Source: Candidatus Acidiferrum sp.
GTDB taxonomy: Bacteria; Verrucomicrobiota; Verrucomicrobiia; Limisphaerales; UBA11358
Reading direction: 5' to 3'
Length of the DNA stretch: 64,000 bases
Assembly: GCA_035506715.1 (NCBI GenBank)
Contig: DATJOW010000095.1
Span: 5,393 to 69,392, forward strand
The notes beneath the pieces are model-generated. The model made no database searches. It was not told the DNA's origin and saw only the letters and a program-made list of their open reading frames with translations. Positions 15,349 through 40,067 of the stretch are shown here, piece after piece; the stretch's first letter is position 1, and the number at the start of each line of letters is the position of its first letter. The position numbers and the translations under genes are program-made.

Positions 15349-17109
15349 ATGAATGAAGAACCCAAAAGCATCTGGAAAAAATCGTTGACCGGCTGGTGCA
15401 TCCTGTCCGTTGTCGCGTTGCTTCTGGCTTTCGCGGGATTTCTAGCGGCGCTGGCGAGCAGTCTATTTCATTTCGACAACAGCAAACTTTTCGGCCTGTC
15501 TTTTTTTGTCAACTGGCTGATTCTCACCATTGGCGCGGCAGCCACCTTTCTGGTGTTGATCCTGCTCTTCCGCTTCATCCGGTGGCTGTATTGTTGGCGT
15601 AACTTCAAGCGATTTCTTTTCGCGGTCGCGTGTCTGGCCACACTGATCGCGTTGTTCTACGCCGAGGAAGACTGGCGCGGCAAACATGCCTGGGAAACAT
15701 TCAAACGCGAGTGGGAGGCCAAAGGCGAACGTTTCGATCGCGCCAGCGTGGTTCCGCCGCCGGTGCCGGACGACCAGAATTTTGCGCTGACGCCGATTGT
15801 CTTTACCAGTTACGGCCAATTGCTGACGCGCGACGGGAAATTCATTCCCTGGGCTGAACGCGACACCAACTTCGTCAACCGGCTGCAAGTGAACATTGGT
15901 GGCCCCCAGCCCTGGCCGACCAATGGTGATTGGCGCCTGGCGCGCGTCAGCGATTTAAGCGCCTGGCAACAGTATTATCGGGCCCTGGCCGCCAAAACGA
16001 ATCAGTTCCCCGTCCCGCCCCAACCGGTATCGCCCGCCGCCGATGTCCTCTTCGCGTTGGGCAAGTACGATTCAACGATCGAGGAGCTGCGGCAAGCCGG
16101 CCAACTGCCTGATTCACGTTTTCCGCTGGAATATGACAAGGATGACCCGGCGGCGATGCTGTTGCCGCACCTAGCGCCGCTGAAAAATTGCGCCCAGGTT
16201 TTACAATTGCGCGCCTTGGCGGAATTGCAGAACGGCCAAAGCGACCGGGCGCTGGCCGACGTAAAACTCATTTTGCGCCTGGCGGATTCGCTCCGCTCGG
16301 AGCCCATTCTGATTTCGCAGCTGGTCCGCGCTGCACTGGTGAATCTCGCGCTCCAGCCGATCTGGGAGGGGCTCCGGCAACGCCAATGGTCGGACGCCCA
16401 ATTGATCGAACTGGGAAATGACCTGGCGAAGACAGATTTTTTGGCTGCCAGCGAACTTGCCTTGCGCGGAGAACGCATCTGGGGTGTTGAAATCATAGAA
16501 TATTTGCGACATTTGACTTACCGGGAAAGGCTGCGCACCCTTTCCGCTTTTGGCAGCAATCTCAAACTCGAGGACGAAATTTTCCTTTGTCTCGGCCCGG
16601 CTGGATGGTTTGACCAAAGCGAACTCCGAATTAGTCGTTTCCTTCTCCGGCACTATTCGCCGGTGGTAAATCTTGACCGGCAAATAGTTTCTCCTGTTGC
16701 TGTGCGAAACGCGGATGAGGCATTCGGCGCGGAAGTTGGCCATTCCGGCAATGGTAATTTTTTTGAGCGATTATTACTGTCGGCCGCGGGCAACGTAGTG
16801 GAGAAATTAGCCTGCGGGCAAAATGCGGTGAACCTGGCGCGTACGGCCTGTGCGTTGGAGCGTTACCGCCTCGCGCATGGCCAATATCCGGAATCGCTGG
16901 ACGCGCTGGTGCCGCAATTCATCGCCCAGCCGCTGCATGATGTCATCAACGGCCAACCGCTGCATTATCGACGCACGAATGATGGCCAATTCGTCCTTTA
17001 TTCCGTCGGCTGGAACGAGACGGATGACGGCGGGGAAGTCGGCTTCACCAAACAAGGCGGTCTGGACATCAGCACCGGTGACTGGGTCTGGCAGTATCCG
17101 CAGAAATAA
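15349..17109 (+). CDS. Membrane protein, unknown function, with a GspG-like C-terminal motif
   Basis: Three N-terminal TM helices. The C-terminus LHYRRTNDGQFVLYSVGWNETDDGGEV resembles the conserved C-terminal sheet of type II secretion pseudopilins. Confidence 0.5.
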   Translation: MNEEPKSIWKKSLTGWCILSVVALLLAFAGFLAALASSLFHFDNSKLFGLSFFVNWLILTIGAAATFLVLILLFRFIRWLYCWRNFKRFLFAVACLATLIALFYAEEDWRGKHAWETFKREWEAKGERFDRASVVPPPVPDDQNFALTPIVFTSYGQLLTRDGKFIPWAERDTNFVNRLQVNIGGPQPWPTNGDWRLARVSDLSAWQQYYRALAAKTNQFPVPPQPVSPAADVLFALGKYDSTIEELRQAGQLPDSRFPLEYDKDDPAAMLLPHLAPLKNCAQVLQLRALAELQNGQSDRALADVKLILRLADSLRSEPILISQLVRAALVNLALQPIWEGLRQRQWSDAQLIELGNDLAKTDFLAASELALRGERIWGVEIIEYLRHLTYRERLRTLSAFGSNLKLEDEIFLCLGPAGWFDQSELRISRFLLRHYSPVVNLDRQIVSPVAVRNADEAFGAEVGHSGNGNFFERLLLSAAGNVVEKLACGQNAVNLARTACALERYRLAHGQYPESLDALVPQFIAQPLHDVINGQPLHYRRTNDGQFVLYSVGWNETDDGGEVGFTKQGGLDISTGDWVWQYPQK

Positions 17110-17110
17110 A

Positions 17111-17245
17111 AGCTCCAAGCTCCAACATCCAAGCTCCAGAGAAATCTCAAGCCTCAAGCGCCAAACCAAAACCATCATCGCCGCGTTTTCTTGTTTGGCT
17201 GTTGGAATTTCTCTGGAGCTTGGTGCCTGGAATTTGGGGGTTTTT
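17111..17245. repeat. Long imperfect inverted repeat built from period-7 units
   Basis: Left arm: AGCTCCA AGCTCCA ACATCCA AGCTCCA GAGAAAT CTCAAGC CTCAAGC GCCAAAC. The 17-nt core CCAAGCTCCAGAGAAAT (17129-17145) is perfectly complementary to 17207-17223. The element ends in GGGGGTTTTT. Confidence 0.75.
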
Positions 17246-17275
17246 ATCCATACCCATCCGTGGTTAAATGGCCTC

Positions 17276-18652
17276 ATGAAAATCACCAACCTGAATCCGG
17301 ACACGGACATTGGCGCGAGCGCGTGGCTGGTGGAGGTGGACGACCACCGCATTTTGCTCGACGCCGGCATGCACCCGAAGCGGGAGGGGCGGGCCGGCCT
17401 GCCGCTATTCGGCAAGGCGGGGAACGCCGAAGTGGACGCCATCGCGATTTCGCACTGCCACCACGATCACGTCGGGGGGCTGCCGGTGGCCTGCCGCCAT
17501 TTTCCCCGGGCGCACGTGCTGATGACCGAGCTGAGCTATTTCATCGTCGAGCGCGTGCTGCACAATTCGGTGAATGTGATGACCCGCCAGCGGGATGAGC
17601 TGGGCATCCGGGAATATCCGCTTTATTCACATGACGAGGTGGATGACCTCGCTCCCGTGTTTCAGGGCTTCAAATACAATCGTGAAATCGAATGGGCGGC
17701 GTTCCACAAGGCCCGCGCGGGGCAGCCGTCGCCAACGCTCGAGTTTTTCGACGCCGGCCACACGCTGGGCTCGGCGGGCATCCTGATCCGCGGCCGCAAG
17801 GAAACGCTGTTTTACACCGGCGACGTGTGTTTTCACGACCAGACGATTTTGCGGGCGGCGCGGTTTAAGGACGTCAAAGCCGACGTGCTCATCATGGAAA
17901 CGACGCGGGGCAACCGCGCGCTGCCACCGGGCCGTTCGCGGAGCGATGAAATCGAGCGGCTCGCCGCGGCCATTCAACATGCGCTCAAGCGCAAGGGTTG
18001 CGTGCTGATCCCGTCGTTCGCGCTGGGGCGCACCCAGGAAATTTTGGCCCTGCTGGCGCTGCTCATGCGCGCGGGCAAATTGAAGCGGCAGCCGGTTTAC
18101 ATCGGCGGGCTGGGCCGCGTGTTCACGGAAATTTACGATCTGGAAGCGCACCGGACGCACCGGCAGCATCCGCACCTGCAACTGCACGAGGCGTTGGAAC
18201 TCATCGTGCTCGAGCCGGGTCAGGCGGAAAAAATGAAGCTGGGAGGAGGGCGCATTTTCGTGATCACCGCCGGCATGATGAGCGAGAACACCGCCGCGCA
18301 CGACCTGGCCGCGCGCATGATCGGCGATGAACGGCAATCGATCTTCTTTGTCGGTTACGCGGATCCGGAGACGCCAGGCGGACGGTTGAAGGCGGCCCGG
18401 CCGGGGGAAACCTTCCTGTTAAGCCCCAGCGCCGGACGGTTGACGCGCCGGTGCGCGGTGTTGGACTTTGATTTGACGGCGCACGCCCACCGCCAGGATT
18501 TGCTGGAGTTCGTGGGGCAGGTTTCCCCCCGCGCCGTCCTGCTGGGCCACGGCGGTGAGGAATCCCGCGCCTGGTTTGTGTCCCAAATCCGCGCCCGCCA
18601 CCCCAAAATCAAGATTCTTCAGCCGCAGCCGGCCAAGGCCCTTTCGGTATAA
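17276..18652 (+). CDS. MBL-fold metallo-hydrolase of the beta-CASP (RNA-metabolising) type
   Basis: HCHHDHVGGLP (HxHxDH) and later beta-CASP-like segments (LIMETTRGN, GRTQEIL, LGHGGEE). The in-frame ATG at 17276 is preferred over the long upstream extension from 16850. Confidence 0.8.
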   Translation: MKITNLNPDTDIGASAWLVEVDDHRILLDAGMHPKREGRAGLPLFGKAGNAEVDAIAISHCHHDHVGGLPVACRHFPRAHVLMTELSYFIVERVLHNSVNVMTRQRDELGIREYPLYSHDEVDDLAPVFQGFKYNREIEWAAFHKARAGQPSPTLEFFDAGHTLGSAGILIRGRKETLFYTGDVCFHDQTILRAARFKDVKADVLIMETTRGNRALPPGRSRSDEIERLAAAIQHALKRKGCVLIPSFALGRTQEILALLALLMRAGKLKRQPVYIGGLGRVFTEIYDLEAHRTHRQHPHLQLHEALELIVLEPGQAEKMKLGGGRIFVITAGMMSENTAAHDLAARMIGDERQSIFFVGYADPETPGGRLKAARPGETFLLSPSAGRLTRRCAVLDFDLTAHAHRQDLLEFVGQVSPRAVLLGHGGEESRAWFVSQIRARHPKIKILQPQPAKALSV

Positions 18653-21620: not shown

Positions 21621-21715
21621 ATTTGCATTTACGATTTACGATTTACGATTTACGATTGCTCCGGGGCTCCGAAACGGTGGGAAAATCACAAATCATCAAT
21701 CGTAAATCATAAATG
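21621..21715 (+). repeat. Heptamer-array element: (ATTTACG)x4-ATTGC, 22-nt spacer, inverted array GGAAAAT CACAAAT CATCAAT CGTAAAT CATAAAT
   Basis: Read directly. The last unit plus G forms TAAATG, which contains the metF start (21713). It is homologous to the element at 36343..36419. Confidence 0.8.
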
Positions 21716-26736: not shown

Positions 26737-29490
26737 TTACCTCGGTTCCTCCTGACCCGGCGTCGACGGCGAGTTGTCGGCGCTGGGTTGTTTTATTAGC
26801 GGGCGCCACCGGCCCAGCAAATTCAAAAGCGCCGGGACCAATGTCAATCCGGCAACCATGCACGCCGCGATGCCGGTGGCCATGACACAGCCTAAGCTGT
26901 GAATGCCGCGGTCTTTGGCGATGATCAAACTGCCGAAACCGGCGATGGCCGTCAATCCGGATACCAGAACCGCTTTGCCGGTACTGCGTGCCAGAATGCT
27001 GGGGGTCCGTTCTTCGGCAAATCGATTGAGGATGTGAATGCCATTGGTCACGCCGATGCCGATGACCAGCGGCAGCGTCATGATGTTCGCGAGATTGACG
27101 GGAATCCCCAGCCAGCCCATCAAACCCGCCAGCCACAGGGTGCCGATGCCGACCGGCAACAACGCCAGTATCACCGAAAGGAGGCTGCGGAAATGGACGA
27201 AAATCAGGAGCACGATTGCCGCCAGTGAATACCACGCCGCTTGAATGTAACTGTCCTTCAACAATTCCTCATACTCATAAAGTTGCACGGGGGTCCCGGT
27301 GACACTGGGATCCACCGTCCGCAATTCCGTGATGAATTTTTTCTGATTGTCCCGCTGCCACATGTTATCCCGCGGAAAGACGTGCAGCAGAAATTTTCCG
27401 GTCTCTCCCACGAACTGGTCGCGGAAGGCCCCGGGCAGATCCTGCAGGTGGACCGGTGCCGTATTGTCCTGATGAAGCAGCAACTGAAAGGTTGCCCGCA
27501 TGTCGTTGAACAGCGCTTGCTGGAACTGCGCCAGCTTGTCCGCGTGCGCCGCCAGCGCATTGGTGTCGCCCGCCAGCATCGTCTTGCGCAGATCTTCAAT
27601 CGCCTGGCGCAAGGCGACCAGATTGCCGGCCAGCTCCCGGTCGCTGTCACCCACTTCGTCCCGGGCCAGCCCCAGATAACCGTAAAGTCCGAATAAAGTC
27701 CGACTGAAGGCGTAGATATCGAGCGGCTGCAGATCCGGTTCTCCGAACTCCAGCGGCGCCAATTGCCGCTTGATTCGACCGATGAGGTTGAGCTTTTCGG
27801 CGTTGCTCGCGTTGAGAAAATTCTCAAACAGGCTGATGGGGGGCTCCACATCTGCCACGGTCGGCAATCGTTTGATCCGGGCGACCAGGTCAATGGCGTT
27901 GGTCACCGAATCGGCGACCACGGCCGCTTCCAGCAGGGATTGGTCGGCCGCCAGCAGCTTATGCTCGTACACCACCGAGGGGAGTCCGATGCTCTGCAAT
28001 TTTTCCAGGTTGTAGTCAAAATAGACCTTGCGCGCCTGGTGCCAGGCCAGCGCGCATAGCGCGGTGGTGAGAATCACGACCAGCACCGGCCGTTGCAGCC
28101 ACAAGTTTTCGATGCGGGCCCGGGTAACGTCCTCGGCGGCTTGATGGTCGATGACGTTTTGCCGCCCCCGCAGGAGCAGTGCCGGCAACAGGGTCATCAT
28201 GGGTATGAAGCAGATCAGCAGGCCGCCGCCACAAATCACTCCCAGTTCCTGGATCCCTTTGAAATGGGTGAACGCCATCGCCAAGAAGGCGCCCGCGGTG
28301 GTCAGGGCACCGGTGAAAATGCCCTGGCCGGTGAAGACCATCGCCTTCGTCAGCGCCGCCTCTTCGGTTTTGCCGTGCCTCAACTCTTCCTCATAGCGGG
28401 TGATCAGGTGGACCCCGTAATCGATGGCCAGGCCGATCAGCATGGGGACAAAGGGCAGGGTCAAGACATTCAAGTGCCCAATGGCCAGCGTGGTGAAAGC
28501 CAGGGTATAGGCCATTCCCACCACCAGGCAGATCGTCGCTTTTACTGGCCGGCCGGTCTCGTTGTAGCCGTAAATGAAAATCAAAACACAGAGCACCAGC
28601 GACACAATGCTGGCGAGCGTGATATCCTTCTGGGACTGCATGGTCTCGTCATAATCGAGCACCGGTTCGCCGATCAGTCCGACATTGAGGCCGGGCACCT
28701 CGTGTTGTGTCTCTTGAATCAGCTCGCGCAGCCGTTCAATCGCGGCGCCGTTCAGTTCATTGGTTGGGGCATGCGACTTGACCAGAAAAATCCGGCCGCG
28801 GTCATAGGTCAGGTAGATATTCGTTTCGCTGCCGGCATTGAACAGCGACGCAACGCTCGGCGAGGGCGGCGTGCCGGACCGGTTCAGGCTGTCGGCCGCC
28901 TGCGTCACGATGCGGGTCAAGGCCGGCAGCGCCTGCACGAGCGATTCCGTCTGGGCGTTCGTTTCCCGCGGCGCAGTCCGGAAGCTGGTGTTGACCTGCT
29001 CGAAGAAGGAGATGAGATTGGTGGTCGGGGTAAATCGGCGGATAAACGGCAGGGTGCCCTCCAGGACTCTTTCCAGCTCCACCAAATCTTCCTCATCGGC
29101 AAACAACAGGGCCTTTGCCCCCATGACCGAGAGGCTCTTCTGGAAAAACACATCCCGGAACAGGTTGGTTTCGGCCTCCATTTTGGCGGCGATGCGCTCG
29201 ATAAACTGGCGGTTTTTCTCAATGTTTTCACTCTCCACCACCACCACCAGATCGTTGCCTTGTTGGGGAAATTCCCTTTGCAGCGCCAGAAAATTCTGAT
29301 GGTACTTCTGGTTGGCCCCGACCAGATTGTCGCGGTTCATGTCGGTTTTCAGATACGCATGGGTGTAGACCACACATACCCCGAACAGCACGGCTTGCGG
29401 GTAAATGAACCAGCGCGGGTGGCGAAATATCGCCGCCGCCAGCCAGGCCAGCAACCGGGCAAGGAGGGTGTCGGGGCTTAATGCTTTCAT
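26737..29490 (-). CDS. RND-superfamily MMPL/HpnN-like lipid exporter
   Basis: 917 aa. Two 6-TM bundles, each preceded by a large soluble loop. The N-terminus (RHPRWFIYPQAVLFGVCVVY) and overall layout resemble HpnN/MMPL transporters rather than AcrB. Confidence 0.7.
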   Translation of the reverse strand: MKALSPDTLLARLLAWLAAAIFRHPRWFIYPQAVLFGVCVVYTHAYLKTDMNRDNLVGANQKYHQNFLALQREFPQQGNDLVVVVESENIEKNRQFIERIAAKMEAETNLFRDVFFQKSLSVMGAKALLFADEEDLVELERVLEGTLPFIRRFTPTTNLISFFEQVNTSFRTAPRETNAQTESLVQALPALTRIVTQAADSLNRSGTPPSPSVASLFNAGSETNIYLTYDRGRIFLVKSHAPTNELNGAAIERLRELIQETQHEVPGLNVGLIGEPVLDYDETMQSQKDITLASIVSLVLCVLIFIYGYNETGRPVKATICLVVGMAYTLAFTTLAIGHLNVLTLPFVPMLIGLAIDYGVHLITRYEEELRHGKTEEAALTKAMVFTGQGIFTGALTTAGAFLAMAFTHFKGIQELGVICGGGLLICFIPMMTLLPALLLRGRQNVIDHQAAEDVTRARIENLWLQRPVLVVILTTALCALAWHQARKVYFDYNLEKLQSIGLPSVVYEHKLLAADQSLLEAAVVADSVTNAIDLVARIKRLPTVADVEPPISLFENFLNASNAEKLNLIGRIKRQLAPLEFGEPDLQPLDIYAFSRTLFGLYGYLGLARDEVGDSDRELAGNLVALRQAIEDLRKTMLAGDTNALAAHADKLAQFQQALFNDMRATFQLLLHQDNTAPVHLQDLPGAFRDQFVGETGKFLLHVFPRDNMWQRDNQKKFITELRTVDPSVTGTPVQLYEYEELLKDSYIQAAWYSLAAIVLLIFVHFRSLLSVILALLPVGIGTLWLAGLMGWLGIPVNLANIMTLPLVIGIGVTNGIHILNRFAEERTPSILARSTGKAVLVSGLTAIAGFGSLIIAKDRGIHSLGCVMATGIAACMVAGLTLVPALLNLLGRWRPLIKQPSADNSPSTPGQEEPR

Positions 29491-29507
29491 GCCTCAGGTC
29501 CCGCCGG

Positions 29508-30239
29508 TTACGTCCCGGAAATGTCGGCGTTGGAATGCACTTCCTTCACGTCATCATGTTCCTCCAGCGCCTCGATCAGTTGATTCACCGCCTTTATGGC
29601 TCCCGCCTCAGTCAAAGCGACTGTCAACGTGGGCAGCGCGGTGATTTCCGCCGCCTCGCACCTGATGTTCCTGGCTTCAATCTGTTGGTGCACCGCCTCA
29701 AAGCGGCCTGGTGCGGTTAGAATTTCATACCCCTGCGGCTCGGCCTTGAAATCCTCCGCTCCCGCCTCCAGCACCAGTTCCATCAACTGATCCTCGTCGG
29801 CGGCTTCCCGCGAGACAATGATTTGCCCCTTGCGATGAAACAGCCGGCTGACCGAGCCGGGGGTGGCAATGCTGCCCCCGCTTTTAGTCACGAGGCTGCG
29901 GATTTCCGATGCCGTGCGATTCCGATTGTCCGTGCTGACCTCCACGAGTAATGCCACGCCGCCGGGGCCGTAAATCTCGTAGGTCAGATCCTCAAAATCC
30001 GCCCCCTCGCCGCCGCCAGTGCCCTTTTTGATGGCGCGCTCGATGTTGTCCTTGGGCATGTTCGCGGTGCGGCACTTCAGCAGCACCATCCGCAGACGCG
30101 GATTCATGTCCGGATCGCCGCCGCCGATTTTGGCGGCAATGGTGATCTCGCGGGCCAGTTTGGAGAAAATCTTGCCGCGTTTGGCGTCAATCGCGCCCTT
30201 GAAATGCTTGACCTTCGCCCATTTGCTGTGTCCGGCCAT
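29508..30239 (-). CDS. yebC: YebC/PmpR-family transcriptional regulator
   Basis: MAGHSKWAKVKHFKGAIDAKRGKIFSKLAREITIAAKIGGGDPDMNPRLR is the canonical N-terminus. Confidence 0.9.
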   Translation of the reverse strand: MAGHSKWAKVKHFKGAIDAKRGKIFSKLAREITIAAKIGGGDPDMNPRLRMVLLKCRTANMPKDNIERAIKKGTGGGEGADFEDLTYEIYGPGGVALLVEVSTDNRNRTASEIRSLVTKSGGSIATPGSVSRLFHRKGQIIVSREAADEDQLMELVLEAGAEDFKAEPQGYEILTAPGRFEAVHQQIEARNIRCEAAEITALPTLTVALTEAGAIKAVNQLIEALEEHDDVKEVHSNADISGT

Positions 30240-30321
30240 GAATTAATTTTGGTTTGAGGGATGACGCTGCCATGCCGTTGCCAGGCGTGCGCCCGAAAGG
30301 GAACTCGCGGGCGGCAAAAGC

Positions 30322-30657
30322 TCAGGCCGCCTCGACATAAACCGCGGTGCCGTAGCACAAGACCTCGGTGATGCCCGCCGCGATTTCCGTCGCGTCGTAC
30401 CGCACCCCGATGACGGCGTTGGCGCCCAATTCGCCGGCGTGCGTGAGCATCAGGTTATACGCATCGCCCCGCGCCTGTTCGCAAAGGTTGGTGTACAGCG
30501 AGATGTTCCCGCCGAAAATGGCCTGGATGCTCGCGCCCATGTTGCCGATGACGGAACGCGACCGCACAATGATGCCGCGTACAACGCCGAACGACTTCGT
30601 CACCCGGTAGCCGGGGAGCTCGAAAGTCGTGGTTGTCAATGGATGTGTCAGACTCAT
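30322..30657 (-). CDS. YbjQ/UPF0145 family protein
   Basis: 111 aa from the ATG at 30657. ...GVVRGIIVRSRSVIGNMGASIQAIFGG...ANAVIGVRYDATEI... is typical of UPF0145. Confidence 0.8.
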   Translation of the reverse strand: MSLTHPLTTTTFELPGYRVTKSFGVVRGIIVRSRSVIGNMGASIQAIFGGNISLYTNLCEQARGDAYNLMLTHAGELGANAVIGVRYDATEIAAGITEVLCYGTAVYVEAA

Positions 30658-30721
30658 AGGGCCATGATTGAACACGACCCCGCAAACCGACAAAAGCGAA
30701 AAGTTCCCCCGCGGCTGGGCC

Positions 30722-31159
30722 TCAAGGTGAAAGCCAGGCGAAGGCCGGCAAATTTCGCAACACCGTGAACAGCGCAATAACGATCAAGACCCCCCACCCG
30801 GCTCCGGCTGGCAGGCGCACCGTCGCCGGACGGCGCCGGATCCGCCGCCCCACCCACCAGACACCCCAGACGCCCAGCGCAACCAGGGCCAGGACGAACA
30901 GCGCGTTGTCGCGCAGCGCGCGAAGCAGATGGCCGTGCAACAATTGATACGCCGCCCGCGTCCCGCCGCAACCCGGGCAGTTCCAGCCGGTCAATTGGTG
31001 GAACAAGCAAACCGGATAAAAACCGCTCCGGGCGGGATCGAAAAAGAACAGCACCGCCCCCGAGCCCAGCACCGCCATCGTCAGCGCCAGCGCCGCAAAC
31101 AGGGCCGGCGACGAAGATACGGCGATTCTGGGCGGCAAGGATCGGGATTCCTCAGACAT
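30722..31159 (-). CDS. DUF2752 membrane protein
   Basis: CLFHQLTGWNCPGCGGTRA motif plus hydrophobic helices. Confidence 0.75.
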   Translation of the reverse strand: MSEESRSLPPRIAVSSSPALFAALALTMAVLGSGAVLFFFDPARSGFYPVCLFHQLTGWNCPGCGGTRAAYQLLHGHLLRALRDNALFVLALVALGVWGVWWVGRRIRRRPATVRLPAGAGWGVLIVIALFTVLRNLPAFAWLSP

Positions 31160-31165
31160 CGTGGA

Positions 31166-31672
31166 TTAAAACGTCTTGAGCTGCCATTCAAATCGCCCCG
31201 GGTGGAGCGCCAGCTGGAGCAGGGTCAGCCCGAATCCCAGCAGAAGTCCGGCGGCGGATAGAATCAACCCGGTAATGGCCAGGGTGCGGCCCGCATAAAG
31301 CTCCGGATGCCGGTTGATTTGTGACCAGCCGATCAGCGAGCAGATTAGCCCGAGCAGGCTGAGAGGCGCCCCACAGCAACAACAGCAGGTCAGCGATAAA
31401 ATGCCGCAGATCAGCCCCGCCGCCGCGAAGAAATTCGTCCGGCGCCGGACGCTCGCCGGCGCCAGGGCCGGCCAAGGCCCAATCACCGGCGGCGGAGGCG
31501 GGGCAAACTGGCTCGCAAATTCAGGCAGCCGGCCGAGGAGGTTCCATTCCGCCGCTCCGGGCGCAAGCGTCTGGGTCTGCGCGTTGGCCCGGCCCTCGGC
31601 AATCCATTGTCGCAATTGGCCGGCTGTAGCCGGGCCGTATTCTCTGCCATCGGCGCCGATGATTCGGTACAT
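31166..31672 (-). CDS. GYF_2 (DUF4339) domain protein with a Cys-rich C-terminal membrane region
   Basis: MYRIIGADGREYGPATAGQLRQWIAEGR...AEWNLLGRLPEF, then TM helices including LTCCCCCGAPL. Confidence 0.65.
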   Translation of the reverse strand: MYRIIGADGREYGPATAGQLRQWIAEGRANAQTQTLAPGAAEWNLLGRLPEFASQFAPPPPPVIGPWPALAPASVRRRTNFFAAAGLICGILSLTCCCCCGAPLSLLGLICSLIGWSQINRHPELYAGRTLAITGLILSAAGLLLGFGLTLLQLALHPGRFEWQLKTF

Positions 31673-31675
31673 GGT

Positions 31676-31975
31676 TCAAAGGTGTTTCGTTTTTCTCAGA
31701 ATGAACAGCCCGATGATGATCGCCACCACCAGCAATCCGATTCCCGCCGCCAGCCACCGCCCGCGACCCGAGGCGGAGGCTCTGGCTTGCTGCTTTTGCC
31801 GGGCGGCAAAACTTTCCGCAAACTCCGGCAGGTCGCTCAGAAACACCCAGTCGGCCGCGCCCTCCGGCATGACGGGGGTCTTGGGCTCCACCCGGCCTTC
31901 CCGGATCCATTGCTTCACCGTTTGGGCGGGCATCGCATCGTATTCATTTCCGTCTGATCCTAGAATCTTGTACAT
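31676..31975 (-). CDS. GYF_2 (DUF4339) domain protein with one C-terminal TM; paralogue of the downstream gene
   Basis: From the ATG at 31975: MYKILGSDGNEYDAMPAQTVKQWIREGR...ADWVFLSDLPEF, then WLAAGIGLLVVAIIIGLFIL. Confidence 0.65.
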   Translation of the reverse strand: MYKILGSDGNEYDAMPAQTVKQWIREGRVEPKTPVMPEGAADWVFLSDLPEFAESFAARQKQQARASASGRGRWLAAGIGLLVVAIIIGLFILRKTKHL

Positions 31976-31985
31976 ACACGCTCCG

Positions 31986-32783
31986 CTAATCTTCTTCACC
32001 CCGCTTGAGCGCGCCGCCCATGTCCGCGCACACGCCCCGCCGGGCTTCGGCAACAAAATTAAGCATGTTTATTGCCACGGGAGAGGCGAATTCCTTCCGC
32101 GCGGCTTCGACGGCCGCCCGCAAATTCTGTCCGCTGCGGAACAAGGCGTGGTACAGCCGCTTCAATTCCAGCCGCTGTTCGGCTGTGACGCCGGCCCGCC
32201 GCAGGCCGATGATGTTCAACCCGCAAATTTCGTTGATGCGCATTGCGATGGTGAACGGCGGCACATCCTGGCTGATGGCCGAGCCGCCTTGCATCAGCGC
32301 CAACGTGCCCACCCGGCAGAACTGGTGGATGAGGCAGTTACCGGAAATGAACGCGCCATCTTGCACGACGGCATGTCCCGCCACCATCGCGCCGCCCCCC
32401 AGGATCACGTGATCGCCCACCACTACATTGTGCCCGACGTGACAATGCGGAGTCAGAAAATTGTGCGAGCCGATGACCGTTTCCCCCTCCAGCGTGGCGG
32501 CGCAGTTCACCGTGACATGTTCGCGAAAGCGGTTGTGGTCGCCGATGCGCAGTCGCGTCGGCTCGCCTTTGTATTTCACGTCCACCGGCTCATCGCCAAT
32601 GACACAGCCCGCGTAAAACCGATTGTGCGCGCCAGCGGTCGTCTGCCCCGTGAGATAAACGAGCGGCCCGACGACGCAATGCGCGCCCAGCGCCACGCCT
32701 TCGTCAATCACCGCCTGAGCGCCGACCTCAACGGTTGAATCCAGTTTTGCTTTCGGATGAATGACGGCTGTTGGATGAATCAC
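31986..32783 (-). CDS. lpxA: Acyl-ACP--UDP-N-acetylglucosamine O-acyltransferase LpxA
   Basis: MIHPTAVIHPKAKL..., hexapeptide repeats, ...GDHNRFREHVTV...GSHNFLTPHCHVGHN..., and a C-terminal helical domain (GLNIIGLRRAG). Confidence 0.9.
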   Translation of the reverse strand: MIHPTAVIHPKAKLDSTVEVGAQAVIDEGVALGAHCVVGPLVYLTGQTTAGAHNRFYAGCVIGDEPVDVKYKGEPTRLRIGDHNRFREHVTVNCAATLEGETVIGSHNFLTPHCHVGHNVVVGDHVILGGGAMVAGHAVVQDGAFISGNCLIHQFCRVGTLALMQGGSAISQDVPPFTIAMRINEICGLNIIGLRRAGVTAEQRLELKRLYHALFRSGQNLRAAVEAARKEFASPVAINMLNFVAEARRGVCADMGGALKRGEED

Positions 32784-32930
32784 AGACTAAAAGTGACGCA
32801 TTCGCCCCGGTTGCCAAGTTCAAAATGCCGCCCCAACGCGAAGAGGCTTTGTCCGGATGGATTTGCATGGTAAATTGCACGGGCCGAAATGAGCGTCACC
32901 ATCCAGTCTGAACCGGCAGGAGAGCAAACT

Positions 32931-32958
32931 CCGCCATCCGCCATCCGCCATCCGCCCT
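32931..32958. repeat. Heptamer tandem array (CCGCCAT)x3 + CCGCCCT inside the U32 N-terminus
   Basis: Read directly. Translates as PPSAIRHPP. Confidence 0.7.
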
Positions 32959-33822
32959 TGCCGGAGTTGCTCGCGCCCGCTGGGGACTGGGATTGCGTAC
33001 GCGCCGCGGTCGAGAACGGCGCCGATGCGATTTATTTCGGCCTCGAAAAATTCAACGCCCGGATGCGGGCGCAGAACTTCACCTCGGCCGATCTGCCTTG
33101 CTTGATGGATTTTCTGCACCGGCGCGGCGTGCGCGGCTATGTCACTCTCAACACGCTGGTTTTTGAGCAGGAACTCGCCGACGCCGAAAAATATTTGCGC
33201 ACGATGATCGCCGCCGGGGTGGACGCCGTCGTGGTCCAGGATGTGGGCATCTGCCGGCTGATCCGGCGGCTTTCGCCCGATTTACCGATTCACGCTTCGA
33301 CCCAGATGACCATCACCAGCGCCGCCGGCGTGGATTTCGCCCGCGACCTCGGCTGCAGCCTGGTCGTGCTCGCCCGCGAATGTTCCATCAAGGAAATCGA
33401 GAAAATCCAAGCCATACAAGGCAAGGCGGGCCGTCTCTTGCCCGCCGTATCCTCCTTTACCAACGACGGCGCGATAGCGACATCGCGCCCCACCATTCTC
33501 CCCCTGGAAGTTTTTGTCCACGGCGCTCTCTGCGTTGCTTACTCGGGCCAATGCCTGACCAGCGAGGCGCTCGGTGGTCGCTCGGCCAACCGCGGCGAAT
33601 GCGCCCAAGCCTGCCGCATGCCTTACGAACTCCTGTCCGACGGGCAACTCGTGCCGCTGGGTGACCGGAAATATCTGCTGAGCCCGCAGGACCTGGCCGG
33701 GCTGGACGTGTTGCCGGAATTGATTCGAGCGGGCGTGGCCTCGCTGAAAATCGAGGGCCGGCTCAAATCCCCCGAATACGTGGCGAATATCACGCGGATT
33801 TACCGCCAAGCGCTGGATAATT

Positions 33823-33890
33823 GCGGAATGCAGAATGCGGAATGTGAAATGCTATCTGCCTCAGCCAGTCCGAAATCCGAAATCCGAAAT
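33823..33890. repeat. Paired heptamer arrays GCGGAAT GCAGAAT GCGGAAT GTGAAAT / 19-nt spacer / (CCGAAAT)x3, at the U32 frameshift
   Basis: Read directly. Total length is 68 nt, which is not a multiple of 3. The left arm has 4 units and the right arm 3. Confidence 0.8.
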
Positions 33891-34649
33891 ATGAGATGGA
33901 GATGGCTTTCTCCCGCGGCTTGCACACCGGCTGGTTCGGCGGCACCAACAATCAGCAACTCGTACACGCCCGCTTCGGAAAAAAACGCGGGGTCTATCTC
34001 GGTGAAGTGAAAAAGGTTTTGCGCGACGCGGTTGTGGTCAAACTGAAAGGCCCGTTGAAGCCGGGCGACGGCGTGGTGTTTGACGCCGGCAAGCCGGCGG
34101 AACCCGAGGAGGGCGGGCGGGTTTACGAAATCCGAAAGGCAAGGCGCGGTGTCCCTACCGCGCCGAAAGCACGGCTCGCTACGGAGGGCGAGCCCCACCA
34201 GGTCGAACTCCATTTCGGCCGCGGCGACATCCATTTCGCGCGCGTTCACGTCGGCGACAAACTGTGGAAGACCAGCGACCCGGAACTGGACCGACGCCTC
34301 CGCCAAAGCTTCGCCGGTGCTACGCCCAGATTCCAGCGACCGATTGAAATCGAAGTGCACGGCATCGCCGGCAAGGCGCTGACCCTGATTGCCCATGATG
34401 AATTCGGCAACATTGCCAAAGTGGAATCATCCATGCCGCTGGCCCGGGCGGATAAACATCCGCTCACGACGGACCGTTTGCGCGAACAATTGGGCCGGTT
34501 GGGGGGCACGCCGTTCCGGCTCGGTGGGTTAAAAAACCTTTTGTCGGGTGACGTGCTGCTGCCGGTCAGCGAGCTGAATCGCTTGCGCCGCGAAATCGTC
34601 GGCGAACTGGAAAGGCGGCGCACCCAGCCTAAGCGTTGGACGCTTTCTG

Positions 34650-34733
34650 ATTGCCGGTTGCCGGTTGCCGATTGCCGATTGAGCGACGATGCGGGCGCAG
34701 CCAAAAATCCGCAATCCGCAATCCGCAATCCGC
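34650..34733. repeat. Paired inverted heptamer arrays ATTGCCG GTTGCCG GTTGCCG ATTGCCG / 28-nt spacer / (AATCCGC)x4, in frame inside the U32 gene
   Basis: 84 nt = 28 codons. Translates as DCRLPVADCRLSDDAGAAKNPQSAIRNPQ. The arms are complementary at 5-6 of 7 positions per unit. Confidence 0.8.
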
Positions 34734-34873
34734 AATTGATTGTTCTGGTCCGCAACCTGCCCCAACTCGAAGCCGCGCTGAAATGCGGGGTGACAACCGT
34801 CTATTGCGAATTTGAAGACCCCAAGAAATACCGCGACGCGGTCACGCTGTTCCACGCGGCCTTCGATCGCCAA

Positions 34874-34930
34874 GGTAGGCCGGGCGGTCCTCTGCCCGCC
34901 GGCGGCGCGCACGGAGTGACGCGCCCTACC
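34874..34930. repeat. REP-like nested palindrome (57 nt), in frame inside the U32 gene
   Basis: Outer stem GGTAGG/CCTACC. Inner hairpin GGCGCG-cacggagtga-CGCGCC plus an imperfect CCGGGCGG/CCCGCCGG hairpin. Translates as GRPGGPLPAGGAHGVTRPT. Confidence 0.65.
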
Positions 34931-35627
34931 ATCTGGGTTGCGCCTCCAAGAATTTTCAAGCCGGGCGAGGACTGGACGCTGGAACAGGTGCGCTCCGGCA
35001 ACGCCGATGGTTATTTAATCCGCAATTACGATCACTTGAAATTCTTCGCGAACGACCGGCGCGTCGGTGATTACTCGCTCAACATCGCCAACCGGCTGGC
35101 GGCGGATTATTTCAAGAACCCATGCGGCCTGGAGCGGGTGACGGCGAGCTACGATTTGAATTTCCAGCAGCTCGAAGCGTTGTTGACCGCCGCGCCGCCC
35201 GAGTGGTTCGAGGTGACCATCCACCAGCACATGCCGATGTTTCACATGGAGCATTGCGTGTTCTGCGCGTTCCTTTCCACCGGCACGGACTTCCGGAACT
35301 GCGGCCGCCCCTGCGACGTGCACGACGTGAAGCTGCGCGACCGCATGGGCGCGGAGCATCCGGTGAAGGCCGACGTCGGCTGCCGCAACACGGTGTTCAA
35401 CGCGCTGGCCCAGACCGGCGCGGAATATGTGTCGCGGATGATCGAACTGGGCGTGCGACATTTCCGCGTGGAATTCCTCAACGAAGCGCCGGAACAGGTG
35501 ATGCAAACCATTGCCAAGTATCATCAGCTATTGCGCGGTGAAATCACCGGCACGCAGCTCTGGCGCAAATTGAAACTGTTCAACCAGCTCGGCGTCACCC
35601 GGGGGCAAATCGGGAAGTAGAACAGGC

Positions 35628-36338
35628 TTACTGGTAGAAGTATCCCAACTCGCGCAGCGATGCGTAGTCCTTCGGCCGGTCCGGTGTGGCACGGCCGATG
35701 ATGATGTGGTCCAGCACCTCGATTTTCAAAAGCTGGCCGGCGCGGATTAAATCGCGCGTCACCTTGATGTCCGCCTCGCTGGGCGTGGGGTCGCCGCTGG
35801 GATGGTTGTGCACCAGCACAATGGCCGCCGCGTTGGCCGCGATGGCCGACCGGAACACCTCGCGCGGATGCACCAGGATGGTGTCGAGCGTGCCGTGCGA
35901 AATGTCCTCCACCCGGATCAGCCGCCGCCGCGTGTTCAACAGGAGCGCCTGGAAGGTTTCGACGCTTTTCACCAGGTTTTGCTCGCGCAGCAGCCGGACG
36001 ATGGCCTCCGGATTGTCGAGCACCGGCGATTCGCGCTGCAAATCCTTGGCCATCGCGCGGGCCAGCGCAAACGCGGCCACCAGCGTCACCGCCTTGTCGC
36101 GCCCGATGCCCTTGACGGTCTGCAAATCGTCCACCGAAGTTTGGGCCAATGACTGGAGAGTGCCGAATTTGTGGAGCAGTTGCCGGCCGATTTCGACGGC
36201 GTTGGCGCCTTTCAGGCCGGTGCGCAGCAGGATGGCGACCAGTTCGGCGTGCGTCAGAGCGTCCGGCCCGCGCTCGGCCAACCGTTCGCGCGGCCGTTCG
36301 CTCAGCGGCTGGTCCTTCAGTCGCAGCCCCTCTGACAT
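35628..36338 (-). CDS. radC: RadC-family JAB-domain protein
   Basis: N-terminal HhH region (ERLAERGPDALTHAELVAILLRTG) and the C-terminal JAMM motif LVHNHPSGDPTPSEAD. Confidence 0.9.
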   Translation of the reverse strand: MSEGLRLKDQPLSERPRERLAERGPDALTHAELVAILLRTGLKGANAVEIGRQLLHKFGTLQSLAQTSVDDLQTVKGIGRDKAVTLVAAFALARAMAKDLQRESPVLDNPEAIVRLLREQNLVKSVETFQALLLNTRRRLIRVEDISHGTLDTILVHPREVFRSAIAANAAAIVLVHNHPSGDPTPSEADIKVTRDLIRAGQLLKIEVLDHIIIGRATPDRPKDYASLRELGYFYQ

Positions 36339-36342
36339 GGTG

Positions 36343-36419
36343 ATTTACGATTTACGATTTACAATTTACGATTGCAACTCAATTTCAACGCCGCCCGTGT
36401 CAAGCGTCAATCGTAAATG
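36343..36419 (+). repeat. Second copy of the heptamer-array element: ATTTACG ATTTACG ATTTACA ATTTACG ATTGC, spacer, CGTCAAT CGTAAAT
   Basis: Shares (ATTTACG)n-ATTGC and the 12-mer TCAATCGTAAAT with 21621..21715. Its TAAATG contains the start of the AddA-like gene (36417). The left end begins 4 nt from the radC start codon. Confidence 0.8.
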
Positions 36420-39400
36420 GCATCATCGAACAAAGACAAAAACCCTCTGACCGAGGCGCAGCGGGAAGCCGTGAAAGCGCGCGGCAACGTGCTCGTCATG
36501 GCCGGCGCCGGCACCGGCAAAACCCACACTCTGGTCGAGCGCTGCCTGCATTGCCTTTGCGAGGAGCGGCCGCCCGCGTCGCTCGAGGAAATCGTCGTCG
36601 TTACCTTCACCGAAGCCGCCGCCGCCGAGATGCGCCAGCGCCTGCGCGAGCGGCTGGAGGAAAAACTCAAGGCGGAGCCCGACGAACCGCGCTGGGTGGA
36701 ACAGCTCACCCTCTTCGACACGGCCCACATTGGCACGCTCCACAGCTTCTGTCTTAAGCTCATCCGCGAACATTTCCATGCCCTCGGCCTCGATCCGCAG
36801 CTGGCCGTGCTCGACGAGGGTGAGGCCCGGCTGCTCGCCGAGGAAACGCTCGAAGCCGAATTGCAGGGCCACTACGCCGGCAAAAGCGAGCCGGCCAAAG
36901 CCGTTCAGCAATTGATCCAGGTTTACGGGGGCGGGCGTGACGAGGCCATCCGCCGGCTGGTCCTGCGACTGCACCACTACGCCCAAACCCGGCCCGATGC
37001 CGACGGCTGGCTGGCGCGGCAGATTGAAAAATTTTCGGTCCCTACCCCGGACGAGTGGCAAAAGTGGCTGCTCGCGGCGATTCAGGATTGGCGCGACGAA
37101 TGGCTGCCGGCTCTGGCAGCCCTTGGAACGCCGAACTCCAATTCGGCACGTTTCCGGGCGGATGACCTTCAAGGCGAACCGGAGTTCGGCGCTCCACCGG
37201 CAAACGAGAAAGCCGCCGAAATGGAGGGTGTTCTCCGGTTGTTGCCCGCTGATTTTTCGCGCGAAGCCGCCGCTGAAATTCTGGCGCAAATCATCGCCGC
37301 CGATGGTCAATGGCCGGCAAAACGCAAAACCGTCTTGCGCAAACCGCTGGCCGGCTTTTTTGATGACGCCCGTTTTCTCCTCTCCCTCGCGGCGGTTAAA
37401 AACGGCGCCGATCCGCTGGCTGAAGACTGGGCCCCGATCCGGAGCCACATGGACGCATTGCTGCGCCTGACTCAGGGGTTTGCCGCCCGGTTCGCGGCCC
37501 GCAAGCGCGAGGAGGGCGTCCTGGATTTCCACGACCTGGAACAATTCGCCCTGAAACTGCTCTGGGATTCTTCGACGGGCCGGCCGAGCGCCATCGCCGG
37601 CCGCTGGCGGGAAAAAATCCGGTTTGTCTTCGTGGACGAATACCAGGATATCAACGCCGCGCAGGATAAAATCATCCAAGCGTTGAGCCGGGAGGGATCC
37701 GCGGCGAATCGCTTCCTGGTTGGCGATGTGAAACAAAGCATTTACCGGTTCCGGCTGGCTGACCCGGAAATTTTCCGCACCTACGCTCAAACCTGGCGCG
37801 GCAAAAAGGGCCGGACCATCCCGCTCACCGAAAACTTTCGCAGCCGCGAGGGCTTGCTCGATTTCGTCAATGCGGTCTTCCAGCCGCTCCTGCGCGAGGA
37901 CATCGGCGGCATTGGCTATGACGCCGAGGCGCAATTGCAGTTTGGCGCGCCGCAGTCGCGCACTCCGCTTGGCACCGCCACCGATCCGGCGCCGCGCGCC
38001 GAATTGCTTCTGCGCCTCAAGTCCGGCCGCGATGACACGGCGTCGGGCGACAGCGATGGCGACGACGAACTCGCGGATTTGCTGGACACGGAGAAGGAGG
38101 CGCGCTGGCTGGCGCAGCGGCTGAAAGAATTGCACGAGGCCGGGCATAGAATTGTCTGGGACGAGAAACAACAGGTTTCCCGTCCAGCGGAATGGCGCGA
38201 CATGGCGGTGTTGTTGCGGGCGCCGGCCGGCAAAGCGGAAGTTTATGCGAAGGAATTCCAGGGCGCCGGGGTGCCGCTGGTCGTCGCGCGCGGCGGGTTC
38301 TATGACAGCAGCGAAATTCTGGATTTGCTGAGCCTGCTGCAATTGCTTGACAACCCTTTGCAGGACGTGCCGGTCATTGCGGTGCTGCGGTCGCCGCTGG
38401 TGGGGCTGTCGCTTGACGAGCTTGCTCAAATCCGGCTGGCGGCCAGGGGCCATTTCTGGACGGCGCTGAACCGAGCGCGGGTTGCGGATTGCGGATTACG
38501 GAAGGAAACGACGCACAAAATCGGAAAATTTCTGGAGCGGTTCCCGCGCTGGCGGCGACTGGCGCGGCAGGGATCGCTGTCACAGTGTCTGGAAAGCGTG
38601 CTGGGGGAAACGTTTTACGCCGACTGGCTGGCCGCCCGGCCGCGCGGAGCGCAGCGGCGGGCCAAGATTGAGCGCCTGCTGGCGCTGACGCAAAAGTTCG
38701 ATCAATTGCCGCGGCAGGGGCTGTTCCGCTTCCTGCAATTTATCGAAGCGCAGCGCGAGACCGGGGCTGAACCGGAGGTCGGCGCGGTTCCCGGCGAAGA
38801 TGCAGTGCGGCTGATGAGCATCCACCAGAGCAAGGGTTTGGAGTTCCCGATCGTCGCGCTGGCCGACCTCGCAAAACCGTTCAACACCCAGGAGCTTCGC
38901 AGTGAAATCATTTTGGATGGAACCTACGGCCTTTGCCCAATTGTCCAGTCCCGGAATCGGATGTCAGGTTATCCCAGCCTGCCGCACTGGCTGGCACGGT
39001 CGCATCAGCGCCGCGAACAATGGGGCGAGGAATTGCGCCTGCTCTACGTCGCCCTGACCCGAGCCCGCGATTTTCTCCTCCTGACCGGCACCGTTTCCAA
39101 AAAGAAAGGGGAGATGCTGGGGACCGGGTCCCCGCCCTTGACGACCCCCGCCATCCTCGCGGCCAACAGTTATGCTGACTGGCTCGGCTTATGGTTGGGC
39201 GGACAGCCGGCTCCAAATGGGATCGGCGGCAACTTGCCGTATTTGCGCTGGCGGCTGGCGGAGGATGCCGAATTGCTGGTGGAATCACCGGGAGCAGCGG
39301 TGGAATCAGGACCGCCGGCTTGGGACCCGCAAACCGGGCCGGCCCTGCAAAAGAGGCTGGCCTGGGATTATCCGTTCGCCGCAGCCACCCGCCGCGCGGC

Positions 39401-40067
39401 CAAGACCACCGTCACCACGTTGCGCCGGCAGGCGACCGAGGAACCGGAAGATGAGGCGGAGGCGCTGTTTCGGGTTTCTCGTTTTCCGCTTTCAGCCGGA
39501 CGGCGCGCCAAAAGAGGCTCGGCCACACAATTGAGCGCGGCTGACACCGGCACGGCTCACCATAAATTCCTGCAACACTTCGCGCTGGACGCCGCGTCAT
39601 CGGTCGCAGCGCTGGAGGCGGAGGCGAATCGTCTGGAACGGGCGAGGATCCTTTCGGCCGCCGAGGGTGCGGCCTTGAATTTGTCGGACATCGCGGCGTT
39701 CTGGAACTCGGACCCGGGAAAACGAATCCGCGCTCAAGCCACCCAGCTTCGGCGCGAACTGGCATTCACCGCGCGCTTCAGCCCGGCGGAACTGGAAACC
39801 GCCACCGGGGTGAAGGCGGCGCCCGGATTGGAGGACGAATTCGTCATCGTGCAAGGCGTGGCGGATCTCGTCACGCTGTTGCCGCAGGAAATCTGGCTGG
39901 TAGATTTTAAGACGGATGATATCCCGGCGGGGGAACTGGCGGGACGGGTTCAGGCCTATGCTCCGCAGCTGAGATTGTACGCGATGGCGCTGGAAAGAAT
40001 TTATGGACGGCCGGTTACGAACCGCTGGCTGCATTTTTTGGCCAGCCGCCGGACGGAGAAGATTTAA
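36417..40067 (+). CDS. UvrD/Rep-type helicase fused to a PD-(D/E)XK nuclease (AddA/PcrA-like)
   Basis: Walker A AGAGTGKT, motif II FVDEYQD, later helicase motifs (TIHQSKGLEF, YVALTRAR). C-terminal nuclease motif QGVADLV...IWLVDFKTD. 1216 aa. Confidence 0.85.
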   Translation: MASSNKDKNPLTEAQREAVKARGNVLVMAGAGTGKTHTLVERCLHCLCEERPPASLEEIVVVTFTEAAAAEMRQRLRERLEEKLKAEPDEPRWVEQLTLFDTAHIGTLHSFCLKLIREHFHALGLDPQLAVLDEGEARLLAEETLEAELQGHYAGKSEPAKAVQQLIQVYGGGRDEAIRRLVLRLHHYAQTRPDADGWLARQIEKFSVPTPDEWQKWLLAAIQDWRDEWLPALAALGTPNSNSARFRADDLQGEPEFGAPPANEKAAEMEGVLRLLPADFSREAAAEILAQIIAADGQWPAKRKTVLRKPLAGFFDDARFLLSLAAVKNGADPLAEDWAPIRSHMDALLRLTQGFAARFAARKREEGVLDFHDLEQFALKLLWDSSTGRPSAIAGRWREKIRFVFVDEYQDINAAQDKIIQALSREGSAANRFLVGDVKQSIYRFRLADPEIFRTYAQTWRGKKGRTIPLTENFRSREGLLDFVNAVFQPLLREDIGGIGYDAEAQLQFGAPQSRTPLGTATDPAPRAELLLRLKSGRDDTASGDSDGDDELADLLDTEKEARWLAQRLKELHEAGHRIVWDEKQQVSRPAEWRDMAVLLRAPAGKAEVYAKEFQGAGVPLVVARGGFYDSSEILDLLSLLQLLDNPLQDVPVIAVLRSPLVGLSLDELAQIRLAARGHFWTALNRARVADCGLRKETTHKIGKFLERFPRWRRLARQGSLSQCLESVLGETFYADWLAARPRGAQRRAKIERLLALTQKFDQLPRQGLFRFLQFIEAQRETGAEPEVGAVPGEDAVRLMSIHQSKGLEFPIVALADLAKPFNTQELRSEIILDGTYGLCPIVQSRNRMSGYPSLPHWLARSHQRREQWGEELRLLYVALTRARDFLLLTGTVSKKKGEMLGTGSPPLTTPAILAANSYADWLGLWLGGQPAPNGIGGNLPYLRWRLAEDAELLVESPGAAVESGPPAWDPQTGPALQKRLAWDYPFAAATRRAAKTTVTTLRRQATEEPEDEAEALFRVSRFPLSAGRRAKRGSATQLSAADTGTAHHKFLQHFALDAASSVAALEAEANRLERARILSAAEGAALNLSDIAAFWNSDPGKRIRAQATQLRRELAFTARFSPAELETATGVKAAPGLEDEFVIVQGVADLVTLLPQEIWLVDFKTDDIPAGELAGRVQAYAPQLRLYAMALERIYGRPVTNRWLHFLASRRTEKI
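37129..37191. repeat. 63-nt palindromic segment in frame inside the helicase gene
   Basis: 11-nt perfect inverted termini CGCCGAACTCC / GGAGTTCGGCG. Terminal mini-hairpins CCGAA..TTCGG and CGAAC-cgga-GTTCG. Encodes the low-complexity stretch PNSNSARFRADDLQGEPEFG. Confidence 0.5.
38481..38501. repeat. Heptamer tandem array GTTGCGG ATTGCGG ATTACGG inside the helicase gene
   Basis: Read directly. Same unit family as 33823 and the reverse complement of 34706-34733. Confidence 0.6.

Follow-up and report, generated by a model that had tools for sequence, protein, structure and literature searches.

The window considered here is a stretch of 64,000 nt, on whose plus strand two overlapping open reading frames, ORF1 and ORF2, occupy different frames, each being one half of a single U32 "peptidase" gene of the DUF3656 type (Table 1). 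The coordinates and the difference in frame, both given in a first-pass annotation of this DNA, were confirmed from the sequence and the ORF calls. The last 40 residues of ORF1, encoded from position 33891 to the stop codon, form an out-of-frame tail (NMRWRW...SISVK*), and ORF2 contains the remainder of the first U32 domain (YEMEMAFSRGL...), together with DUF3656 and another U32-like domain. Because the ORF2 frame is closed upstream by a TGA codon, any frame change yielding one uninterrupted product must fall within positions 33848-34007.

Two heptamer arrays separated by a short spacer are located at the break. Tandem Repeats Finder reports the 5' array at 33822-33852 (period 7, 4.4 copies, 79% matches) and the 3' array as a perfect repeat of the same period (3.1 copies, 100% matches). 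The span 33823-33890 measures 68 nt, and the earlier description of four units plus (CCGAAAT)3 over this total length agrees with both the letters and the repeat calls. The 21-mer (CCGAAAT)3 was absent from all 100 dinucleotide-preserving shuffles of the window. The window junction (33816-33895) is 80 nt long and would reach 87 nt with 7 nt more. By frame arithmetic, the addition of 7 nt produces a 912-aa ORF, and the removal of 14 nt produces a 905-aa ORF, in line with the first-pass remark that a two-unit deletion also restores the frame. The peptide across the junction is SEIRNPKYEMEMAFSR in the intact allele vs SEIRNMRWRW in the frameshifted one.

Table 1. Coordinates of features in the window (positions counted from its first letter)
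Feature	Position	Strand	Description
Intergenic heptamer hairpin	21627-21714		(ATTTACG)4.4 ... (CATAAAT-like)4.6, between the BBP2 porin and MTHFR genes
ORF1	32889..34010	+	373 aa; N-terminal part of the U32 gene to ...SPKSEIRN, then out-of-frame tail
TCCGCCA array	32930..32956	+	(TCCGCCA)3.9; in frame, variable N-terminal tail (PPSAIRHPP)
GC-rich perfect palindrome	33468-33489		GGCGCGAT..ATCGCGCC; variable loop at ~aa 194
5' heptamer array	33823..33851	+	GCGGAAT GCAGAAT GCGGAAT GTGAAAT G; imperfect; encodes CGMQNAECEM
TGA	33845-33847	+	Upstream closure of the ORF2 frame
Spacer/loop between arrays	33852..33868	+	CTATCTGCCTCAGCCAG, 17 nt
3' heptamer array	33869..33890	+	(TCCGAAA)3 + T = (CCGAAAT)3; site of the missing unit
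ORF2	33896..35620	+	574 aa (first ATG) or 572 aa (second ATG); in the -1 frame with respect to ORF1
A_AAA_AAC	33980..33986	+	Only in-phase canonical -1 slippery heptamer in the ORF overlap
GC-rich perfect palindrome	34143-34164		GGCGCGGT..ACCGCGCC; variable loop at ~aa 419
Sister element	34649..34736	+	(TTGCCGR)4.7, 25-nt loop, (AATCCGC)4.4; in-frame hairpin in the second hypervariable linker
GATTTAC array	36342-36373		(GATTTAC)4.6, between divergent RadC-like and UvrD/PD-(D/E)XK helicase-nuclease genes; partner arm decayed
GCGGATT array	38477-38502		(GCGGATT)3.7; in frame in the UvrD/PD-(D/E)XK helicase ORF (RVADCGLRKE); partner arm decayed
Long tandem repeat	62306-64000		Period ~174 nt (also called 165, 348), ~10 copies, 73-80% identity, running to the window end

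Domain searches place the break inside a single protein domain. The Pfam Peptidase_U32 match in ORF1 ends at profile position 202 of 233, and ORF2 is matched by DUF3656 and by a second U32 domain. On the intact 912-aa protein, the U32 match crosses the junction (residues 203-357, profile positions 83-232), so that ORF1 lacks the end of its own domain and the possibility that it is complete alone, left open in the first-pass annotation, falls away. The 912-aa protein scores 283 bits against PF01136 (gathering cut-off 22.4) and 89 bits against PF12392 (cut-off 22.1). Its scores against the NCBIfam equivalogs are below the cut-offs (199 bits vs 534 for TrhP and 162 bits vs 440 for UbiU); judged by these profiles, this enzyme of the U32 family has TrhP and UbiU as its nearest relatives but falls outside both groups. 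A phmmer search of PDB sequences with the 912-aa protein found no match. An AlphaFold2 model based on a 47-sequence alignment (mean pLDDT 55, pTM 0.37) was too poor for placement of the linker or for a fold search.

Contigs carrying either the intact or the split allele were retrieved by exact look-ups of neighbouring proteins. One of them (L083/L090; JGI 3300032829 Ga0335070_10011875, Lox_Sample_1.3) shows 0 SNPs against window positions 30635-39898 (9.26 kb) and carries an additional TCCGAAA after 33868. The JGI contig comes from a wetland soil sample of the Loxahatchee refuge (Everglades), which was sequenced on an Illumina NovaSeq instrument and assembled with metaSPAdes (PMC8067648). The same additional heptamer after 33868 is found in an ENA contig (L084/L088/L089; ERZ27256505 k141_140903) that differs from window positions 27986-36704 (8.7 kb) by 4 SNPs, the SNP positions near the array being 31826, 36557, 36594 and 36629. 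Within the U32 gene, one extra TCCGAAA is the sole difference in 2,739 aligned nt between the window and the intact-allele contigs. These contigs encode a single 912-aa ORF, equal residue for residue to the predicted fusion, and the 912-aa protein is recorded on three contigs. The first-pass prediction that a fourth CCGAAAT would fuse the two ORFs into a 912-aa product reading ...SPKSEIRNPKYEMEMAFSRGL... is therefore borne out by real contigs that carry exactly that product. Tract length is thus polymorphic in near-identical backgrounds (3 vs 4 units), with two states and one variant allele seen. Across all assemblies, the five other period-7 arrays of the compared region show no difference; only the perfect CCGAAAT array varies.

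The three-unit allele is likewise recorded outside the window. ENA contig ERZ27256510 k141_2815590 (70,120 bp) is identical to the window over the gene and stops at window position 60164, and so is not the source of the window; gene callers cut its U32 gene into products of 373 aa and 537 aa. In NCBI, the ORF1 product is identical to HTY87468.1 (373 aa) and the 572-aa form of ORF2 to HTY87469.1, both of which are encoded on one contig (79,856 bp) from a third-party (TPA) MAG. An exact look-up of the 574-aa form of ORF2 found no record, because gene callers chose other starts. The three-unit allele is accordingly present in two assemblies with different contig ends (ERZ27256510 and the NCBI TPA MAG), which possibly derive from the same reads. 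For annotation purposes, HTY87468.1 and HTY87469.1 represent one frameshifted allele, not two proteins. Both NCBI entries bear the label 'Candidatus Acidoferrum sp.', an acidobacterial name. Since the best homologues and the syntenic loci all belong to Limisphaerales or other Verrucomicrobiota, the labelled contig has, to judge from its sequence, probably been mis-binned or mislabelled.

Comparison with orthologues indicates which of the two unit numbers is the older one. Each of the best 120 homologous proteins, all from Limisphaerales and other Verrucomicrobiota, is a single polypeptide of 863-1039 aa. Among 80 orthologue loci taken from reference genomes, both flanking anchors could be located in 79, and the junction length is divisible by 3 in every one of these 79 loci, with none out of frame. 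The idea that the orthologues are two separate genes, which the first-pass annotation had kept as an alternative, does not agree with either result. Three relatives (L001, L091 and L092) possess 4+4 units in an 87-nt in-frame junction, as had been guessed from the sister element of the window. In these relatives and in the four-unit allele, the 87-nt (29-codon) insert is translated in frame between YRQALD and YEMEMAFSRGL. Given that the relatives and the intact allele of the same species all have four units and 87 nt, four units can be regarded as the ancestral state and the window as a contraction. A metagenome scan with the species-specific loop sequence returned 0 matches, and a second metagenome scan found only two related species. 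A further contig of 2,025 bp (L093; ENA ERZ27256600 k141_2046589) contains a variant of the 3' part of the gene, in which the first ~105 nt are unmatched to the window and the next ~70 nt contain several SNPs. This is either a chimeric contig or a rearranged strain, and it was set aside as evidence on array length, since the unmatched first ~105 nt make it uninformative.

The linker in which the break lies, between YRQALD and YEMEMAFSRGL, is hypervariable and ranges from 16 to 69 residues across orthologues. Many Limisphaerales have a strong hairpin encoded at this site, with a sequence family that varies by genome: the arms are GCGGATT / CCGAAAT in L001 (z -4.5), GATTTAC / GTAAATC in L003, L004, L012 and L018 (z -3.4 to -7.7) and GTGACGA / TCGTCAC in L005 and L006 (z -5.0 and -3.3), and non-heptamer palindromes, of at least two kinds, occur in L017, L019, L025, L026 and L031 (z -3.8 to -9.0). 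In other orthologues, a single decayed arm is left in the linker. The presence of unrelated hairpin-forming sequences at one linker site suggests turnover or repeated colonisation of the site. In a separate folding comparison, the elements of L001 and L092 fold better than shuffles (z -3.6 and -2.6). In the species of the window, the 5' arm has diverged, and the element folds no better than shuffles in either allele (z -0.16 and 0.11).

Other parts of the protein show similar variability. The second linker and the N-terminal tail also vary among orthologues, and the second linker holds diverse palindromic inserts; in the window it is occupied by the sister element, with 31-nt arms that are 81% complementary (-40.8 kcal/mol, z -2.5). 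The N-terminal tail contains the TCCGCCA array, and one contig (L085; ERZ27256600 k141_3080606) ends at window position 32955, which is the end of that array. GC-rich perfect palindromes occupy two further variable loops of the U32 protein.

This gene is strongly enriched in period-7 arrays of three or more units. Across 36 verrucomicrobial loci, 44 such arrays were found in 94 kb of U32 gene vs 6 in 184 kb of flanking sequence, a 14-fold higher density (p = 3e-15), and within the gene they cluster at about six protein positions. Five of the eight period-7 arrays of the window lie within the 2.7-kb U32 gene. Generic perfect hairpins are not enriched in the U32 gene (1.1 vs 0.83 per kb), and permissive loops alone may suffice to account for the concentration of arrays. 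The eight period-7 sites of the window do not form a dispersed family, as they differ in units and loops, and no second copy of the junction element was found among them. Three of the arrays outside the gene are listed in Table 1; for the hairpin between the porin and MTHFR genes, the minus-strand fold is the stronger one (-43.5 vs -30.2 kcal/mol). Another heptamer array at 17110 was considered as the site of a second frameshift, joining the ORF pair 15349..17109 and 16850..18652, and was rejected: these are two separate genes, and the array is intergenic because the beta-CASP protein starts well downstream.

On this evidence, the window probably carries a real, non-programmed slipped-strand allele. 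The gene encodes a DUF3656-type U32 protein of ~900 residues, whose first U32 domain is interrupted by a presumed surface linker of hypervariable sequence. In this lineage, the linker is specified by an 87-nt element, normally in frame, in which two heptamer arrays contribute 4+4 units. Slipped-strand mispairing would then have removed one unit from a perfect (CCGAAAT)4 tract (-7 nt), with the result that ORF1 ends in 40 nonsense codons. The other 63% of the protein, to which the last ~30 U32 positions belong, would be reachable only from an internal ATG with neither a recognisable ribosome-binding site nor a promoter. According to this proposal, three-unit and four-unit alleles would coexist in a near-identical background and segregate in a Limisphaerales population of Everglades soil, as a recent and transient loss-of-function polymorphism that could in principle be reversed by regaining a unit. 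The three-unit allele appears to be present in cells and not merely in assemblies. It would be expected to abolish function, and is probably a null allele. The event itself is an ordinary frameshift caused by slippage within a short coding repeat, the mechanism of which is already known; the locus offers a concrete example of how repeat length can be polymorphic in a near-clonal population from the environment.

Alternatively, the organism might have four units throughout, with the three-unit form arising during amplification, error correction or graph simplification. Such an assembly or library artefact would fit the recovery of the intact allele, in an identical background, by another assembler (metaSPAdes). 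It would also fit the fact that both three-unit records could share reads and a similar MEGAHIT-style pipeline, as k141 contig names suggest, and that some contigs end or turn chimeric near repeats of the U32 gene (L085 at 32955 and the start of L093). However, a 28-nt array is far shorter than both Illumina reads and the final k of 141, and a de Bruijn contig should consequently hold only k-mers that are present in the reads. The deletion also amounts to exactly one unit, as replication slippage predicts; the two assemblies agree despite their different contig boundaries; and no other split gene was noticed among window ORFs of at least 200 aa. An artefact is therefore considered unlikely.

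A biological alternative is that the array acts as a contingency locus, that is, a selected and reversible ON/OFF switch of which the window represents the OFF state. Heptanucleotide-repeat slipped-strand switching has been documented for the IgA protease variants of H. influenzae (PMC8178019). In simple-sequence-repeat (SSR) contingency loci of Haemophilus and Neisseria, as at the present locus, a repeat whose unit is not a multiple of 3 lies within an ORF, so that losing a single unit throws the ORF out of frame and shortens its product; here a change of one unit alters the frame of the U32 gene, and both unit numbers occur in near-identical backgrounds. In addition, contigs with no other difference over 9.26 kb have 3 vs 4 units, and since not a single SNP separates them over this distance, the array must have changed faster than base substitutions accumulated. 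Several features nevertheless speak against a selected switch. In contrast to those loci, the tract is very short (only 4 units) and stable, with exactly 4 units in every relative that has the element; the frame is kept in each of the 79 orthologue loci, a single variant allele has been seen, and no variation was observed in the other perfect heptamer arrays of the region compared. A spread of length classes among strains and relatives, some of them out of frame, was sought and not found, as L001, L091, L092, L083 and L084 all have four units, and no sign of switching that is reversible or of high frequency emerged. The product is an intracellular TrhP/UbiU-like enzyme, and such intracellular enzymes are not the usual targets of phase variation. 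The gene also differs from the SSR systems in belonging to an uncultured soil verrucomicrobium. A selected switch thus seems rather improbable. The same doubtful standing applies to a broader version, in which a class of heptamer-hairpin inserts in Limisphaerales colonises coding loops and thereby makes the U32 gene switchable, the 3/4 polymorphism being an ON/OFF snapshot. No description of such heptamer-hairpin elements in Limisphaerales was found in the literature.

The remaining possibility, that the split gene is functional because its fragments are translated separately and assemble, or because translational or transcriptional frameshifting restores the full-length product, is very improbable. 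The ATG of ORF2 does lie exactly where conservation resumes (MEMAFSRGL), the linker that contains the break accommodates inserts of 16-69 residues, and proteins cut at a permissive loop sometimes reassemble from two fragments. Yet ORF2 has neither a preceding Shine-Dalgarno-like sequence, which is absent before both of its ATG codons, nor a promoter, as a search of the U32 gene found no sigma-70-like site. The stop codon of ORF1 lies 114 nt downstream of the ORF2 start, a poor arrangement for translational coupling. As regards frameshifting, a scan for in-phase X_XXY_YYZ sites across the 160-nt overlap identified, in an A7 run, the canonical A_AAA_AAC, which encodes the conserved K-K-R (K367, K368 and R369, all invariant). 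This sole slippery site is situated 84 nt (~30 codons) past 33896, where conservation resumes in the ORF2 frame, and follows ~30 conserved residues that would be misread, many of them invariant (Y337, E340, M341, F343-L347, G350 and W351 before 33980). No orthologue is split or frameshifted, and an Rfam search at E<=1 over positions 32000-37000 gave no match. Programmed -1 ribosomal frameshifting was rejected, as the only slippery site is too far downstream and the orthologues are all single in-frame ORFs. Rescue of the broken gene is unlikely.

The repeat element itself can be compared with two known types of bacterial repeats. Cyanobacterial short tandemly repeated repetitive (STRR) sequences are heptanucleotide arrays. 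They resemble the repeats described here in being dispersed tandem arrays of 7-nt units in a bacterial genome, and cyanobacterial U32 orthologues (e.g., L039, L046 and L052) carry repeat-derived inserts in the same linker. They differ in phylum and in unit sequences, and the arrays of the present lineage often form complementary hairpin pairs and accumulate within a protein-coding gene. Rickettsia palindromic elements (RPE) and intragenic REPs are palindromic repeats located in frame within coding genes (PMC3733652). As in those cases, a short hairpin-forming repeat here adds a translated loop to a protein that is conserved elsewhere along its length, and while some orthologues have the element, others lack it or have a different one. 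Unlike RPE and intragenic REPs, however, the arms are composed of tandem heptamers and not of a unique palindrome, the window copies have no common loop or unit sequence, and the junction copy folds no better than shuffles (z ~0). The occurrence of differing hairpin repeats in the same loops, and the concentration of heptamer arrays in this one gene, may be relevant to the question of how coding sequence tolerates repeats that are selfish or born of slippage. Apart from the heptamer arrays, the window also contains the much longer tandem repeat listed at the end of Table 1.
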